The notes under the pieces were generated by a model. That model saw only the letters and a list, made by a program, of their open reading frames with translations, searched no databases and was not told the origin of the DNA. From positions 5,741-69,740 of the forward strand of contig CAVZRD010000011.1 in assembly GCA_963777675.1 (NCBI GenBank): a stretch of DNA of 64,000 bases, in the 5' to 3' direction. This stretch comes from an uncultured Gammaproteobacteria bacterium. GTDB lineage: Bacteria > Pseudomonadota > Gammaproteobacteria > Steroidobacterales > Woeseiaceae. Positions 5,186 to 36,879 of this stretch are shown here, in pieces (position 1 is the first letter of the stretch; every line of letters starts with the position of its first letter). Made by a program: the position numbers and the translations under genes.

Positions 5186-6794
5186 ATACTTTCCAATACG
5201 GGTCAGGAGGCTGCGGGTCGAGGGGTTCTCACTATTGGCCACGTTCTTCGCGAGCTTCTTGCCGAGCTCGACGCCCCACTGGTCGAAGGAGTCGATGCCC
5301 CAGATCACGCCCTGGACGAACACCTTGTGCTCGTACAGGGCGATCAGCTCGCCGAGCGTCTCCGGGTCGAGCTTCTCGAACAGGAGCGTATTCGATGGCC
5401 GGTTGCCCACGTGCAGCGCCAGGGCTCGAGGCCTTTCTCGTCGAAGCCGTCCATCAGCGCCTCGGACTGGGCGAGCAATTGGCGATGGCGAGGTCCTGCT
5501 GAGCCTGATCGCCGCCGGCGGACTTCGCCGGCAGCAGGAAATCGGCCGGCACGAGGCGGGTGCCCTGGTGCAGCAGCTGGAAGAAGGAGTGCTGGGCGTT
5601 GTTGCCGGTCTCGCCCCAGACCACCAGCCCGGTCTTGTACTTGACCGGCTGGCCGACATGTGCACCGCTTGCCGTTGGATTCCATTCGAGCTGCTGCAGG
5701 AAGGCCGGGAAGCGCTCGAGCCGATTGTCGTACGGCAGGATCGCCTGCGAGTCGGCGCCGAAGAAGTTGTTGTACCAGATCGCCGATCAGGGCCAGCGGT
5801 CACCGGCAGGTTCTCCGCCATCGGCGCGTGCCGGAAGTGCAGGTCCATCTGCCGGCCGCCGGCGAGCAGCTCGCGGAACTTGTCCATGCCGATGACCAGC
5901 GCCAGCGACAGGCCGACCGCCGACCACAGCGAGTAGCGCCCGCCGACCCAGTCCCAGAACCCGAAGCGGCGTTCCGGGTGGATGCCGAAGGCTCCATCGC
6001 GGCGTGGTTGGTCGAGGCCGCGACGAAGTGATCGCCGACCGCGTCCTTGCCCAGGCGTTCGACGATCCAGCGCCGTGCGGCGTTGCGTTGGTCATCGTCT
6101 CCTGGGTCGTGAAGGTCTTGGAGCACACGATGAACAGCGTCGTCGCCGGATCGAGCTGGCGTTTCAGGTCGGCGAGTTGCGTGCCGTCGACGTTGGACAC
6201 GCTGTGGAATCGCATCCCGGAATGCCAGTGCGGACGCAGCGCGCGGCTCGCCATGACGGGGCCGAGGTCCGAGCCGCCGATGCCGATGTTGACGATTTCG
6301 GTGAGCCGATAACCCGTGCTGCCGGCGATCTTGCCCGCGTGCACGCCTTCGACGAACTCGTCCATCTTGGTCAGGACTTCCCAGACTTCCCGCACGCCGG
6401 GCGTGTCCAGCGCCACCGTGTCCGAGAGCTTGGCGCGCAGCGCGACGTGCAACGCCGGCCGGTCCTCGCTGCGGTTGATCGATTCGCCTGCGAACATCGC
6501 CTCGATCGCCGCCGGCACGCCGGCCTCCCCGGCCAGCCGGGCGAGGAGCTTCGCCGTCGTCGTGTCGAGATGGTTCTTCGAATAATCGAGCGTCAGCTTG
6601 TTCGCCGTGAGCGTGAAGCGCTCGGCCCGCTGCGGGTCAGCAGCGAACAAGCCGGCGAGTTTGGACTTGCTGATCTGCTTGCGATGGGCCTTGAGTGCCT
6701 CCCAGGCCGGCAGGTCGGTCGGGTAGCGCGCCGAAAGCTGCCTGTCGGTGTAGGACTTAAGCTTGTTTTTCGAGGTCGACGGCATAGAACTCAA
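5180..6794 (-). pseudogene. pgi: Glucose-6-phosphate isomerase; at least 4 frame breaks
   Basis: N-terminal ORF 5787..6794 (..[35 protein letters not shown]). Middle pieces in other frames ([29 protein letters not shown]; [29 protein letters not shown]). C-terminus [52 protein letters not shown]. Confidence 0.85.
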
Positions 6795-31220: not shown

Positions 31221-31297
31221 TGGGGTGGACGATGGGACTCGAACCCACGACGACCGGGATCACAACCCGGGGCTCTACCAACTGAGCTACGTCCACC
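31221..31297 (-). tRNA. tRNA-His (GUG), with G-1
   Basis: Minus strand GGTGGACGTAGCTCAGTTGGTAGAGCCCCGGGTTGTGATCCCGGTCGTCGTGGGTTCGAGTCCCATCGTCCACCCCA. Confidence 0.95.
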
Positions 31298-31335
31298 ATT
31301 GGTGAATGCGGCGCGATTTTACACGCTTTTTGGAC

Positions 31336-31634
31336 TGGTGCGCCCGGCAGGACTTGAACCTGCAACCCTCGGCTTAGCTTACCACTACCGCTTTCGCGAC
31401 CCCGCAGCGGCGGGTTTGTGGTCTGGACTATCTCTTCACCATCTCAGGTGCCGCACGTATAGTCTCTACGGATCCCGGCGATCGAACTTGCCGATCGCAG
31501 GTTTCCACGGGGTTGCCATCAGCATTACCTGTTAAGGGTTCCCCGTTACAGTGCGGTCCACTGCCCCGGTTCGGTTTCCCGGCGCAGGCTCCTCACTCAA
31601 AGGCCGATGCTCTATCCAGTTGAGCTACGGGCGC
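31336..31634 (-). tRNA. tRNA-Arg (UCU), interrupted by a group I intron (exons 31634..31600 and 31377..31336)
   Basis: 5' exon GCGCCCGTAGCTCAACTGGATAGAGCATCGGCCTT. 3' exon CTAAGCCGAGGGTTGCAGGTTCAAGTCCTGCCGGGCGCACCA. Joined, they give a canonical 77-nt cloverleaf with anticodon loop CU-UCU-AA. Confidence 0.85.
31378..31599 (-). ncRNA. Group I intron (IC3-like, ORF-less, 222 nt) in the tRNA-Arg anticodon loop
   Basis: The 5' exon ends in U and pairs CCUU with intron GAGG (terminal U.G). The intron ends in G. Blocks GCGCCGGGAAACC, GAUGGCAACCCCG and CCGUAGAGACUAUACGUGCGGCACC resemble the Azoarcus tRNA-Ile intron core. Confidence 0.8.
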
Positions 31635-31676
31635 TCTCTCGCTGCAATACGCAAATCTCCTCAAAACCGTCATATT

Positions 31677-31753
31677 TGGTCGGGGCAGACGGATTCGAAC
31701 CGCCGACCCTCTGCTCCCAAAGCAGATGCGCTACCAGACTGCGCCATGCCCCG
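31677..31753 (-). tRNA. tRNA-Pro (UGG)
   Basis: Minus strand CGGGGCATGGCGCAGTCTGGTAGCGCATCTGCTTTGGGAGCAGAGGGTCGGCGGTTCGAATCCGTCTGCCCCGACCA. Confidence 0.95.
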
Positions 31754-33445: not shown

Positions 33446-34096
33446 TCATCGGGGCACGCCCGAGTGGAAACGGAACTGCGGGTCGGGTTCCGTGACCAGC
33501 TGTTCGTCGATCGCGCGGAATGCGCCGAGCCGTGCCTCGACCTCCGCCTCGCTCGCGCCGGTCTCGCTCTTCGCGAGCGCAATGTAATTCTCGAAATGAC
33601 GGGCCTCGGATTCGAGCAGGCCCGCATAGAACCGGCCCAGATCGTCCGGCAGCCGCGGTGCCAGCGCGGCGAAGCGTTCGCAAGACCGCGCCTCGATCAC
33701 GGCGGCGACGAGCAACAGGTCCAGCAGCTTGCCGGGCTCCTCCTCGCGCACCGCCTCGCGCAGGTCGCCCGCGTAGCGCGACGCGGTGAGCCGGGTAAAC
33801 CGCTCGCCGCGGTCCGCGATGATGCGGCGTACCTGTTCGTAATGACGCAGCTCTTCGCGCGCGAGCCGTGACATGCGCTGCGCGAGCGCCGGCCGCTCAG
33901 GGTAGCGGTACAGGAACCCGAGTGCCGTCGAGGCGGCCTTGAGTTCGCAGTTGGCGTGATCGACGAGGAGGTCCGGCAGGTGTTCGATGGCTGCGTCGAG
34001 CCAGGCGTCGGGGGTGGGCGCCAATTGAAAGTCCGCGGCAGGTATCGCGGCTAAAGCCGCTCCTACGGATACGGGGCCGGCCGACGTTACAGCCAT
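33446..34096 (-). CDS. miaE: tRNA-(ms2io6A37)-hydroxylase MiaE (ferritin-like diiron); start uncertain because a REP lies in the 5' end
   Basis: APTPDAWLDAAIEHLPDLLVDHANCELKAASTAL, REELRHYE, EARSCERF, ESEARHF (diiron ExxH motifs). The only ATG (34096) reads through REP 34044..34068 (..VGAALAAI..). The alternative is TTG at about 34030. Confidence 0.75.
   Translation of the reverse strand: MAVTSAGPVSVGAALAAIPAADFQLAPTPDAWLDAAIEHLPDLLVDHANCELKAASTALGFLYRYPERPALAQRMSRLAREELRHYEQVRRIIADRGERFTRLTASRYAGDLREAVREEEPGKLLDLLLVAAVIEARSCERFAALAPRLPDDLGRFYAGLLESEARHFENYIALAKSETGASEAEVEARLGAFRAIDEQLVTEPDPQFRFHSGVPR
34044..34068. repeat. REP variant A2, single copy inside the miaE 5' ORF extension
   Basis: ATCGCGGCTAAAGCCGCTCCTACGG. 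Confidence 0.9.
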
Positions 34097-35292
34097 TCGG
34101 CGACCTCCTCGGCGGACTGCAGACGGTCGTCCGGGTTCTTGGCCAGCATCATGTTGAGGATCGCCTGGTAGCGCGCGAAGCGGGCCGAGAGCAGCGGCAC
34201 TGGCGCCTTCGCGTGCTGATAGATGATGCCCATGGCCGTGTCGGCGCGGAACGGCTTCGTGCCGGTCAGCATCTCGTAGAAGATGACGCCGAGGCTGTAG
34301 ATATCGCTGCGATGATCGACGCCGTTGCCGTGACCCTGCTCGGGACTCATGTAGTACGGTGTGCCGAAGATTTCGCCCTCGTCGGTCATCTCCATCTCCA
34401 GCCGCATGCGCTTGGCCAGCCCAAAATCGATCAGCGCGATCGAGTCGTCCTCGCGCAACATGATGTTGCCGGGCTTGAGATCGCGATGCAGGATGCCGAC
34501 GGCGTGTACCTCCGCGAGCGCGCTCGCGATCTGGCGCAGGTAGCTGACGGCCTTGGGTCCGGCGATCCCTGCCGCGATACGCTGCTTCAGGTCACCGCCG
34601 CCGAGGTATTCCATCGCGATGTGCGCGTGATCGTCGCCCACGCCGAGATCGTAGATTTTGACGATGTTCGGGTGGTCGATCTCGGCGATCAGCTCGTACT
34701 CCTGCAGGAAGCGATCGAACGCGCCGATGCCGTCGGCGATGTCCGGGACCTGCTGCAAGACCTTGAGCACGACCTTGATCCCCGTCGCCTCGCGTTCGGC
34801 GAGGTAGATCGCCGAATGCGCGCTCGCATTCAGCTTCTTGATCAGCAGATAGCCGCGGATCAGCGGATGGATGCCGGTGCGCTCGTCGCCGACGAAAAGG
34901 GAGCCCGTCGACGCGACCTTGCGCTGCGCTTTCAGGATGTCGGAAAGCATCACCGACAGCACATCGTGGCGCACGCGCTCGCGCAGGATGAAGCCTGCGG
35001 CCCCGACCCGCTTCGCAGCCTCCTCTTCCTCCCCGACACCGAAATAGACGACCGGAGGGAAGCCCGCGGTGCGGCAGAATTGCCGCAGCACGACGAGGCC
35101 CTCGCGATCCCCGAGCCGATTGCCGAGCAGGACGATGTCGTTGCCGGCCCCGGAGAATTCGTCGGGCAGATTGCCGAACTCGGCGGGATCGAACGGCGTG
35201 ATCACGGCCTCGGGCCAGTGCGTGTTGACGTGGTGCGTGAGCAGGCTGCGGAACTCCGCCTGCCCGTCGATGATCATGATCCTGATGCTCAC
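34087..35292 (-). CDS. Hanks-type Ser/Thr protein kinase with N-terminal degenerate receiver (pseudo-REC) domain
   Basis: Intact 401 aa. Kinase motifs VVLKVL (Lys), HRDLKPGNIML, IDFGLA, GTPYYMSPEQ. The N-terminal 120 aa are CheY-like, but Gly replaces the phospho-acceptor Asp (IVLLGNRLGD) and the acidic pair is DG. Confidence 0.8.
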   Translation of the reverse strand: MSIRIMIIDGQAEFRSLLTHHVNTHWPEAVITPFDPAEFGNLPDEFSGAGNDIVLLGNRLGDREGLVVLRQFCRTAGFPPVVYFGVGEEEEAAKRVGAAGFILRERVRHDVLSVMLSDILKAQRKVASTGSLFVGDERTGIHPLIRGYLLIKKLNASAHSAIYLAEREATGIKVVLKVLQQVPDIADGIGAFDRFLQEYELIAEIDHPNIVKIYDLGVGDDHAHIAMEYLGGGDLKQRIAAGIAGPKAVSYLRQIASALAEVHAVGILHRDLKPGNIMLREDDSIALIDFGLAKRMRLEMEMTDEGEIFGTPYYMSPEQGHGNGVDHRSDIYSLGVIFYEMLTGTKPFRADTAMGIIYQHAKAPVPLLSARFARYQAILNMMLAKNPDDRLQSAEEVAEWL

Positions 35293-35319: not shown

Positions 35320-36879
35320 CTACATACCGACGGCTTTGCCGGTGCTGCCCGCAACGGTGCCGTCCGCAGCTTTGTCCGCGCCGGGCGCGAGTAGCCCCTT
35401 GCGTTTGGCCTCGCGCCGTTGCTTCGCAGCGTCATTGCGCCGCCTCTCGACCTCATGCAGGTATTCGTCCGTCACGTCCCCGGTGACATATTCGCCGGAG
35501 AAACAGGAAGTATCAAATTCCGTGATCGTGGAATTGTCGTGCTTCACAGAACGGATCAATCCGTGCAGGTCCTGGTAGATCAGCCGGTCCGCACCGATGA
35601 GCTCCTGGATCTCCTCGACCGTGCGCCCATTGGCGATCAGTTCGTCGGCGGCCGGCATGTCGATACCGTAGACATTGGGGAAGCGGACCGGCGGCGCGGC
35701 GGATGCAAAATACACCTTGCGCGCACCCGCCTCCCGCGCCAGCTTGATGATCTGCCGCGAGGTCGTGCCGCGCACGATCGAGTCGTCCACGAGCAGCACG
35801 TTCTTCTTCGCGAACTCGAGGCCGATCGCATTGAGTTTGTGCCGGACGGACCGTGCCCGCTCCGCCTGCCCGGGCATTATGAAGGTGCGTCCGACATAGC
35901 GGTTCTTGATGAAACCCTCGCGGTATTTCACGCCGAGGTGATTCGCGACCTGCACGGCCGCCGTGCGGCTCGTGTCCGGGATCGGGATGACGACGTCGAT
36001 GTCGTGATCCGGGAAATCGCGGATGATCTTCCCCGCCAGTTCCTCGCCCATACGCAGCCGCGCCTTGTAGACCGACAGGTTGTCCAGGATCGAATCGGGG
36101 CGCGCGAAGTAGACGAATTCGAAGATGCAGGGCGTGTGCCGCGTCTCGCCCGCGTACGCGCGGCTGTGCAGGCTGCCGTCGTTCTCGATGAACAGCGTCT
36201 CGCCGGGCTGCACGTCGCGTACGCGTTCGAACTGCAGGATATCGAGGGCCACACTCTCCGAGGCCACCATGTAGTCCTCGCCGTCGGCCGTCGGCCGCCT
36301 GCCGAGTACCAGCGGCCGGATGCCGTTCGGGTCGCGGAACGCCACGACGCCGAAACCGACGATCATCGCGACCACCGCGTAGCCGCCCTTGCAGCGCCGA
36401 TGCACGGCCTCGACAGCTCCGAACACCTGGTTCGGTGTCGGCCGGCCATTGGCCCGCAGCTGCAGCTCGTGCGCGAAGACGTTCAACAACACCTCCGAGT
36501 CGGAGCCGGTGCTGAGATGACGTCGGTCCTGCCGGGTCAGCAACTCGGCGAGCTCGTCGTAATTGGTCAGATTGCCGTTATGGCCGAGGCAGATGCCGTA
36601 CGGCGAATTGACGTAGAACGGCTGTGCTTCGGAAGACCGGGCGCCGCCGGCGGTCGGGTAGCGGACGTGGCCGATACCCGCGTTGCCCGTGAGCCGCAAC
36701 ATGTGCCGCTGCCGGAAAACGTCGCGCACGAGGCCGTTGGCCTTGCGCTGCTGCAGCCCGTCGGGACCCCAGGTCACGATGCCGGCCGCGTCCTGGCCAC
36801 GATGCTGCAGCACGGTGAGCGCATCGTAAATCGCCTGGTTGACGGGAGAATGACTGACAATTCCGACGACACCGCACAT
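35320..36879 (-). CDS. purF: Amidophosphoribosyltransferase
   Basis: Intact 519 aa. MCGVVGI N-terminal nucleophile, PRPP loop [13 protein letters not shown]. About 35-aa basic C-terminal tail. Confidence 0.95.

Follow-up and report, generated by a model that had tools for sequence, protein, structure and literature searches.

The 64,000-nt stretch studied here (the window: positions 5,741 to 69,740 of contig CAVZRD010000011.1, from an uncultured gammaproteobacterium of the Woeseiaceae) carries on its minus strand a tRNA-Arg(UCU) gene in two pieces, separated by a 222-nt insert that falls within the anticodon. The insert has the sequence and the covarying helices of a group I intron of the IC3 type. 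The split gene and its tRNA neighbors comprise the following features.

31600..31634, minus strand: 5' exon of tRNA-Arg(UCU), with the acceptor 5' strand, the D-arm, the anticodon stem 5' strand and C32, U33 and U34; its last nucleotide, U34, is the -1 U of the 5' splice site (ARAGORN; BLAST against intron-less alleles, which resume at 31600).
31378..31599, minus strand: group I (IC3-type) intron without an open reading frame (ORF) (full-length RF00028 match, seed profile, covariation and minimum free energy, MFE, folding).
31378, minus strand: omega-G, the last intron nucleotide, at the 3' splice site (G in all 111 introns compared, that of the window included; empty-site boundary at this position).
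31336..31377, minus strand: 3' exon of tRNA-Arg(UCU), with C35, U36, A37 and A38, the anticodon stem 3' strand, a 5-nt variable loop, the T-arm, the acceptor 3' strand, A73 and an encoded CCA (ARAGORN; BLAST against intron-less alleles, which end at 31377).
31677..31753, minus strand: tRNA-Pro(UGG), 42 nt upstream of the split gene, a conserved cluster neighbor (ARAGORN).
31221..31296, minus strand: tRNA-His(GUG), 39 nt downstream of the split gene, a conserved cluster neighbor (ARAGORN).

The two exons and their borders

Read from the window, the 5' exon (31634..31600, 35 nt) runs GCGCCCG-UA-GCUC-AACUGGAUA-GAGC-A-UCGGC-CUU, with the 3' end ...GGCCUU, and the 3' exon (31377..31336, 42 nt) runs CU-AA-GCCGA-GGGUU-GCAGG-UUCAAGU-CCUGC-CGGGCGC-A-CCA; the 222 nt between them (31599..31378) begin with UGAGUGAGGAGCC and end with GGUAGUGGUAAG. 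When the exons are joined, ARAGORN returns a 77-nt tRNA-Arg(tct) with a canonical cloverleaf and the anticodon UCU; its sequence has A20, C35 and A73, which are identity elements for arginine. Applied to the genomic sequence, ARAGORN -i finds the same tRNA-Arg(tct) with a 222-nt intron after linear nucleotide 35, which corresponds to standard position 34/35 because the D-loop has one extra nucleotide. A preliminary description of the locus, drawn up from the letters of the window, had given these exon coordinates, the 77-nt cloverleaf with the loop CU-UCU-AA and a splice between nucleotides 34 and 35, and our results agree with it on each of these points. It had also expected standard tools to overlook the gene. 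Indeed, default ARAGORN reports six tRNAs in the window and none between tRNA-Pro(UGG) and tRNA-His(GUG), and Rfam at its gathering thresholds reports nothing at the split-gene locus.

The borders of the insert are also marked by alleles that lack it. A scan of metagenome contigs for the uninterrupted, clade-specific tRNA, with 56 nt spanning the exon junction, yielded at least 120 loci (L240-L359). These near-identical, uninterrupted alleles are abundant in metagenomes from the sea and from sediment, being present on at least 120 contigs, mostly in the order Pro-Arg-His(-Lys-Leu). Aligned with the window by BLAST, they stop at 31377 and restart at 31600, precisely at the inferred splice sites. 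Their flanking genes are 66-79% identical to those of the window, within the same range as those of intron-bearing relatives. From the seamless break and the equal flank identity it follows that related lineages differ by the presence or absence of exactly these 222 nt; this indicates that the intron has probably been gained or lost repeatedly among them.

The exons differ from those of relatives at 2-5 of the 77 positions, and the Pro-Arg-His order is conserved in relatives with and without the intron. AGA codons make up 14 of the 13,279 codons in the long ORFs of the window, and ARAGORN found no second tRNA-Arg(UCU) within the 64 kb. As a side observation, the window tRNA has A at the discriminator (A73, 31338) and A in the T-loop (A57, 31355); among the 22 closest relatives listed, G73 and G57 each occur in 21. 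All of these are purines, compatible with tRNA-Arg.

Group I identity and structure of the insert

A permissive Rfam search of 31250..31700 (451 nt) matched the group I intron model RF00028 over its whole length (positions 1-253), at 24.0 bits and E=4.5e-4, with a gathering score for this model of 50. Of this check, which the preliminary description had proposed, the full-length match held and the threshold score did not. None of the 12 seeds of RF00028 is bacterial, and bacterial tRNA introns needed cut-offs of 18-20 bits in a purely computational preprint (Williams 2020, bioRxiv 10.1101/2020.01.27.920355); the same preprint, which adds 17 new settings, lists 'Arg.3Ug' as a setting of bacterial tRNA group I introns, with the seed Rba190.Arg.3Ug. 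For a further search, 12 published seeds of bacterial tRNA introns (Leu, Arg(CCU), fMet, Thr, Met, Ile (Azoarcus), Lys and Ser) were turned into an nhmmer profile, which includes neither the Arg.3Ug seed nor any sequence from our own scans. This profile has a single match in the 64 kb, at 31545..31379 on the minus strand (63.5 bits, E=2.5e-19), extending from P4 to the base preceding omega-G. Since a match at this E value is unique in the 64 kb, the likeness of the insert to group I introns is not due to chance. The insert interrupts a bacterial tRNA gene within the anticodon loop, between nucleotides 34 and 35 (ARAGORN), and the locus has what defines the Arg.3Ug setting: a tRNA-Arg spliced behind the third position of that loop, with a -1 U and an omega-G (CUU|...G|CUAA).

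The structure was examined by projecting a manually drawn P1-P9 model on an alignment, A1, of 32 short homologues, the window intron among them, made non-redundant at <93% identity. It consists of the following elements.

31589..31602, minus strand: P1 hairpin, CUU+U/GGAG, formed by C32-U33-U34 and intron nt 1 (31602..31599) with the internal guide GGAG (31592..31589, intron nt 8-11).
31561..31587, minus strand: P2, a 9-bp stem CUGCGCCGG/CCGGGGCAG with a conserved 9-nt loop GAAACCGAA; 7 of 9 pairs compensatory, 97.8% paired, present in the MFE fold.
31551..31556, minus strand: P3 5' strand CCGCAC, pairing with 31456..31451; 5 of 6 pairs compensatory and 100% paired, in the family and against published seeds.
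31507..31546, minus strand: P4 (ACGGGG/CCCCGU), P5 (CC/GG) and P5a (CAG/CUG); covariation in the family and against seeds, and the MFE fold.
31470..31506, minus strand: P6 (GG/CC; 96.9% paired in A1) and the P6a hairpin.
31457..31469, minus strand: J8/7 together with the 5' strand of P7, GUAGAGACUAUAC, which is the best-conserved block of the core; the P7 5' strand is GACUAU, 31464..31459.
31451..31456, minus strand: P3 3' strand GUGCGG, in a pseudoknot with P7; covariation in the family and against seeds.
31437..31450, minus strand: P8, 4 bp (CACC/GGUG) with the conserved hexaloop UGAGAU; 3 of 4 pairs compensatory, 100% paired, also against seeds.
31426..31431, minus strand: P7 3' strand AUAGUC; covariation in the family and against seeds.
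31381..31422, minus strand: P9 (ACCAC/GUGGU), enclosing P9a (CCCGC/GCGGG) and P9b (UCGC/GCGG, with a GAAA cap); 5 of 5 pairs compensatory in P9a and 4 of 4 in P9b.

Standard pairs occupy 96.5% of the 1869 cells in A1, against 84% in column shuffles, and sliding the 3' partners by 1-3 columns lowers pairing to 34-44%. Compensatory changes, with both sides altered, affect 31 of the 59 pairs, and not one of 500 shuffles matches the observed value on any measure. Such pairs occur in every helix from P2 to P9b, the exceptions being P5, both of whose pairs are invariant, and the outer part of P6a, where variation is confined to one side of each pair. The window copy itself forms 58 of the 59 pairs and keeps all of the invariant columns. 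For a comparison across lineages, the window was aligned with eight seeds from the literature, one of them that of Azoarcus, and pairing was scored for P3, P4, P5, P7, P8 and P9b; P2 and P6 were left out of the count because MAFFT could not align the window lineage with the published seeds there. In this alignment, 96.4% of the cells are paired and 14 of 28 pairs are compensatory, a result equaled by none of 500 shuffles. Every helix of the conserved core P3-P8, including the P3/P7 pseudoknot, is backed by covariation both in the family and against seeds that include Azoarcus, and each core helix is under selection. The MFE fold recovers P2, P4-P6a, P7, P8 and P9-P9b (z=-3.36). The identification of the 222-nt insert as a group I intron, made in the preliminary description, is borne out by the full-length RF00028 match, the seed profile, the covariation from P1 to P9 and the empty sites. 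The pairings that it singled out, CCGCAC/GUGCGG (P3) and ACGGGG/CCCCGU (P4), are real helices that covary, and its omega-G lies at a border that the empty sites confirm.

At the 5' splice site, U34 (31600) forms a U.G wobble with G9 (31591) in 32 of 32 sequences of A1, and the guide GGAG is likewise invariant (32/32). Intron nt 1 is U in 21 sequences and C in 11, and it always pairs with G8 (U.G in 21, C-G in 11). The U.G wobble that the preliminary description gave for P1 is borne out; the register CCUU/GAGG (intron nt 6-9) that came with it has to be given up, since the homologue L121 has UGGG there and loses the U.G pair, while GGAG at nt 8-11 never varies. The guide 5'-AGGAG-3' (intron nt 7-11) complements the spliced segment C32-U33-U34-C35-U36 with one G.U pair, so that it could hold both exons, first in P1 and then in a 2-bp P10. 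Judged by complementarity, this P10 could form between A7 and G8 (31593..31592) and U36 and C35.

In the J8/7 and P7 5' block, the columns do not vary, whether within the family or in comparison with Azoarcus and the other seeds, and the single variable pair of P7 appears in A1 as A-U, G-C and U-A. By homology with Azoarcus, P7 would be the guanosine-binding helix. The GAAA that caps P9b is invariant in A1. The internal loop of P5, CCUUAAC/GAUGG, is similar, not identical, to the 11-nt receptor CCUAAG/UAUGG; it thus resembles a tetraloop receptor, into which the L9b GAAA may dock.

The periphery varies between lineages. In the gammaproteobacterial lineage, L2 is a 9-nt loop, GAAWNNGAA (A1 columns 64-78; window 31578..31570), and P8 consists of 4 bp capped by the hexaloop UGAGAU (A1 columns 245-271; window 31446..31441). 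The window has no L2 GAAA tetraloop with a P8 receptor of the Azoarcus type, which is a difference between lineages and not a requirement of the core. Variants from Bacteroidota have a long P8 with a canonical CCUA(A/C)...UAUGG receptor motif and a different P2. These comparisons suggest that the tertiary clamp may have been remodeled within the intron family.

Distribution, endonucleases and known systems

In the GTDB representatives, with a single genome for each species, we looked for the IC3 core motif with G|CUAAG after it and obtained at least 119 loci. On homologous loci, ARAGORN -i was often unusable or produced ghost exons (Ser, Lys, SeC), and brute-force exon joining was used instead. 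A complete tRNA-Arg(UCU) split at the same site is found in at least 110 species genomes (110 of the 119 loci among the matches listed), a figure biased toward one sub-lineage because the scan required the exact core motif. Among the same listed matches, introns range from 201 to 697 nt, and hosts are mostly Gammaproteobacteria: Woeseiaceae, Ca. Thiodiazotropha, Sedimenticola, Wenzhouxiangella, Lentisalinibacter, Lysobacterales and Chromatiales. About eight hosts are Bacteroidota (Saprospiraceae and Chitinophagaceae), and single metagenome-assembled genomes (MAGs) are labeled Patescibacteria, Omnitrophota, Blastocatellaceae and others, the labels being as binned. The nearest of the listed introns, 86-89% identical over the full length, are those of the Woeseiaceae MAGs L147, L205, L175, L230 and L184, whose flanks are syntenic with those of the window at 66-79% identity. 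By this synteny and flank identity, the DNA comes from a Woeseiaceae-like gammaproteobacterium.

The window intron has no ORF, as the preliminary description had noted, and tblastn finds in it no trace of the endonuclease ORF carried by relatives. By BLAST, long introns match nt 1-102 and 119-222 of the window intron. Their additional ~420 nt, which hold the endonuclease, are inserted in the distal P6a (intron nt ~103-118), as located by the breakpoints at nt ~102 and ~119 and by the ORF positions. Among the matches listed, 30 homologous introns of 634-697 nt carry a full-length ORF of 136-149 aa on the sense strand at intron nt ~130-580 (tblastn; L127, L128, L130, L131, L137, L145 and 24 others). 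The one tested, from L127, belongs to PF11645, a PD-(D/E)XK endonuclease family, with 131.8 bits; its sole PDB match is 2OST (E=2e-4; PDB title 'putative endonuclease'), which we take to be I-Ssp6803I, the homing endonuclease of the Synechocystis tRNA-fMet intron. Remnants of 22-67 aa persist in nine mid-length introns (L125, L142, L157, L182, L185, L202, L209, L211 and L222).

The succession from full ORF to decayed ORF, ORF-less intron and empty site is the classical homing-endonuclease cycle. Full ORFs, remnants, ORF-less introns and empty sites all occur at one target in this family, from which we infer that such a cycle probably runs here. The window intron would then belong to a mobile lineage spread by a P6-encoded, I-Ssp6803I-like PD-(D/E)XK homing endonuclease, and its own copy would have lost the ORF or never have had it. 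In the Bacteroidota introns L129, L151, L173 and L201 we observed an antisense ORF of 124-176 aa with CxxC...HH...CxxH motifs, and that of L151 passes the Pfam HNH model (PF01844; 22.3 bits, cut-off 21.4). By these sequence motifs, a second, unrelated endonuclease family appears to occupy the same intron site in Bacteroidota.

Viral genomes also hold split genes of this kind. In IMG/VR, 18 of 120 contigs matching a generic IC3 core have a tRNA-Arg(UCU) split at 34/35 (L019, L022, L023, L034, L041, L044, L048, L054, L068, L071, L074, L076, L082, L085, L087, L106, L108 and L117), with introns of ~200 nt and, in two cases, 615 nt. Most of these genes lie inside phage-style tRNA arrays (Asn-Thr-Gly-Val-Ser-Pro...), and their introns match the window lineage over a 57-74-nt core only. 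The same viral set contains 17 split tRNA-Leu(UAA) genes (ARAGORN).

A group I intron in tRNA-Arg(UCU) is an arrangement already known, and the window provides a well-supported example of it and no discovery. The novelty implied in the preliminary description is contradicted by the listing of Arg.3Ug (Williams 2020), by Beggiatoa and Thiomargarita (Flood et al. 2016, PMC4853749) and by the 110 or more species genomes reported above. Flood et al. 2016 (PMC4853749) state that a putative group I intron interrupts tRNA-Arg-TCT in Ca. Thiomargarita nelsonii Bud S10, and they cite MacGregor et al. 2013a for the same in Beggiatoa 'BOGUAY'. Annotation had listed no tRNA-Arg-TCT for these bacteria, and the interrupted gene was the one form in which it came to light (Flood et al. 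2016, PMC4853749). The likeness to the window, drawn from the published description, lies in the class Gammaproteobacteria, the tRNA and the failure of annotation pipelines to see it. The hosts differ, being Beggiatoaceae and not Woeseiaceae-like, and Flood et al. 2016 (PMC4853749) contains no structure or splicing analysis.

The published seed Rba190.Arg.3Ug shares the isoacceptor setting and the splice site with the window, as well as the plan CUU|C...GGAG...g, in which a -1 U, an omega-G and a GGAG guide pairing with CUU and intron nt 1 recur. With an identity of only 56.6%, it is nevertheless no nearer to the window intron than are introns from other tRNAs. The window lineage differs from it by UGUA in place of AAA in J3/4, by GG/CC in place of GCC/GGU in P6, by a 9-nt L2 and by a minimal P8, and has AAGAGAUAGUCC where Rba190.Arg.3Ug has AAGGGAUAGUCC.

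The classical bacterial settings, Leu.3Ug, Arg.5Ug, fMet.2Ug and Ile2.5Ug, are all IC3 (Williams 2020, bioRxiv 10.1101/2020.01.27.920355). The splice sites given in the preliminary description, 34/35 for Leu(UAA) and after nt 36 for Ile(CAU) and Arg(CCU), agree with that source (Leu.3Ug, Ile2.5Ug and Arg.5Ug). The alphaproteobacterial tRNA-Arg(CCU) intron (Arg.5Ug, Agrobacterium type) resembles that of the window in being an IC3 intron of an arginine tRNA, and its seed Rur1 is, at 65.1%, the published seed most similar to the window intron; it differs in its isoacceptor, CCU, and its splice site after nt 36. The cyanobacterial and plastid tRNA-Leu(UAA) intron (Leu.3Ug; Anabaena/Nostoc) shares the U34/nt 35 site, the IC3 core and a similar P9 architecture, in a different tRNA, and the window intron shows 63.8% identity to a Leu.3Ug seed from proteobacteria. 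Self-splicing of the tRNA-Leu(UAA) intron has been shown experimentally.

With the Azoarcus tRNA-Ile(CAU) intron (Ile2.5Ug), which serves as the structural model of the IC3 type, P3, P4, P5, P7, P8 and P9b align column for column, with compensatory changes. The Azoarcus-like blocks that the preliminary description pointed to are indeed there: the two introns share GUAGAGACUA, AUGGCAAC, AGUCCAG and GCGAAAG, and GCGCCGGGAAACC is an exact 13-mer of the Azoarcus seed. The Azoarcus intron differs in its site after nt 36, in an L2 GAAA tetraloop that docks in a canonical P8 receptor and in having no P9/P9a extension, and identity is 56%. The Synechocystis tRNA-fMet intron with I-Ssp6803I is comparable through the ORFs of the 30 relatives, the tested one being the PF11645 protein that matched 2OST. 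By contrast with it, the window copy is ORF-less and sits in another tRNA at another insertion site.

Splicing and rival explanations

We consider it very probable that a functional tRNA-Arg(UCU) gene lies here, its anticodon cut between U34 and C35 by a 222-nt, ORF-less, IC3-type group I intron. That the intron is spliced and the tRNA used can be argued from the conservation of the exons, the use of AGA, the lack of a second copy in the 64 kb, the precedent of Beggiatoa and Thiomargarita and the selection on the helices. By homology with the Azoarcus and Anabaena tRNA introns, the Pro-Arg-His cluster would be transcribed and the intron would fold into P1-P9 with the P3/P7 pseudoknot. The guide AGGAG would pair with C32-U33-U34, setting the U34.G9 wobble at the 5' splice site, and a free guanosine held in P7 would attack after U34. 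In the next step, omega-G (nt 222) would enter the G site while A7 and G8 hold C35-U36 (P10), and the exons would be ligated. The outcome would be a restored loop CU-UCU-AA and a mature 77-nt tRNA reading AGA.

Several points weigh against this interpretation. The RF00028 score remains below the gathering score, P2 of the window copy contains one G-G mismatch, and the search for a second tRNA-Arg(UCU) gene covers 64 kb of the genome. The searchable literature contains no published splicing experiment on any tRNA-Arg(UCU) intron, which is weak evidence, as subscription journals lie mostly outside its reach. Finally, the 9-nt L2 and the P8 of 4 bp and a hexaloop differ from the GAAA tetraloop and receptor that stabilize the Azoarcus intron, so that autonomous folding is presumed here.

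These peripheral differences invite a more far-reaching reading. The window intron could represent a distinct, uncharacterised IC3 sub-lineage of the Woeseiaceae/Thiodiazotropha type, in which altered L2, P8, J3/4 and P6 replace the tetraloop-receptor clamps. If it lay in the only tRNA-Arg(UCU) gene, decoding of the rare AGA codon would hinge on guanosine-dependent self-splicing and might be tunable through it, and phage arrays might be spreading or exploiting the element. Taken as a whole, we find this scenario doubtful.

The same features could also mean that the insert, although derived from a group I intron, no longer self-splices efficiently and needs a host protein (a chaperone or maturase-like factor) for the tRNA still to be made. 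The 9-nt loop in place of a GAAA tetraloop in L2, the minimal P8 hairpin lacking the canonical 11-nt receptor that Bacteroidota variants still possess, and the low RF00028 score would all fit such a dependence. However, invariance or covariation marks the whole of the catalytic core as well as the U.G wobble, omega-G and the GAAA of L9b, and no conserved protein gene lies beside the ORF-less copies. Moreover, small IC3 tRNA introns, such as those of Azoarcus and Anabaena, are generally autonomous. We regard a requirement for a host protein as quite unlikely.

It is very improbable that the tRNA gene is dead, its insertion no longer removed and AGA read by another gene copy elsewhere in the genome. 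Such a copy could lie beyond the 64 kb in view, AGA is rare, and standard annotation tools see no tRNA at the locus. Yet the exons, at 2-5 differences in 77 positions from relatives, still fold perfectly, and the intron keeps all family-invariant positions and all pairs but one. The same split gene is retained with compensatory substitutions in more than 100 species, and Beggiatoa and Thiomargarita have yielded no tRNA-Arg-TCT other than the interrupted one (Flood et al. 2016, PMC4853749). As for an archaeal/eukaryal-type bulge-helix-bulge tRNA intron, a group II fragment or a small transposable element, the anticodon-loop position is all that recalls them, and their probability is negligible given the position 34/35 and not 37/38, the lack of a bulge-helix-bulge motif in the insert, its specific and strong sequence and structure homology to group I seeds, the absence of terminal inverted repeats or target duplication and the seamless empty sites.

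A spliced group I intron in tRNA-Arg(UCU), which we prefer, leaves the knowledge of group I introns unchanged, and its value is more practical than conceptual. Default tools miss the gene, and hosts such as Woeseiaceae, Thiodiazotropha symbionts, Sedimenticola and Wenzhouxiangella appear to be without tRNA-Arg(UCU); assessments of tRNA complement and of genome completeness are thereby distorted. With all stages of a homing cycle apparently present at a single target, the family would be well suited to studying, in nature, how an intron is gained and lost, and cultured carriers exist in Lentisalinibacter and Wenzhouxiangella. Lasting interest may lie in the blind spot of annotation, the wide spread of the family among abundant lineages of marine sediments and symbionts, the homing series and the lineage-specific periphery of the ribozyme.

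Two other candidates at the locus were rejected. A match to RF02553 (YrlA) at 31268..31371, minus strand, reaches 27.4 bits where the gathering score is 69, and is an artefact composed of the T-arm of tRNA-Arg and the D-arm of tRNA-His. Promoter-like and terminator-like sites on the plus strand of the intron are consensus noise, the 'terminator' being the P9a hairpin read on the opposite strand. Upstream of the tRNA cluster, all on the minus strand, lie a gene for a MiaE-like tRNA ms2io6A37 hydroxylase (33446..34096; 200 bits, below the equivalog cut-off of 320), a gene for a protein with a Ser/Thr protein kinase domain (34087..35292) and purF (35320..36879; 523 bits). These genes form an ordinary chromosomal context, conserved in the Woeseiaceae MAGs.

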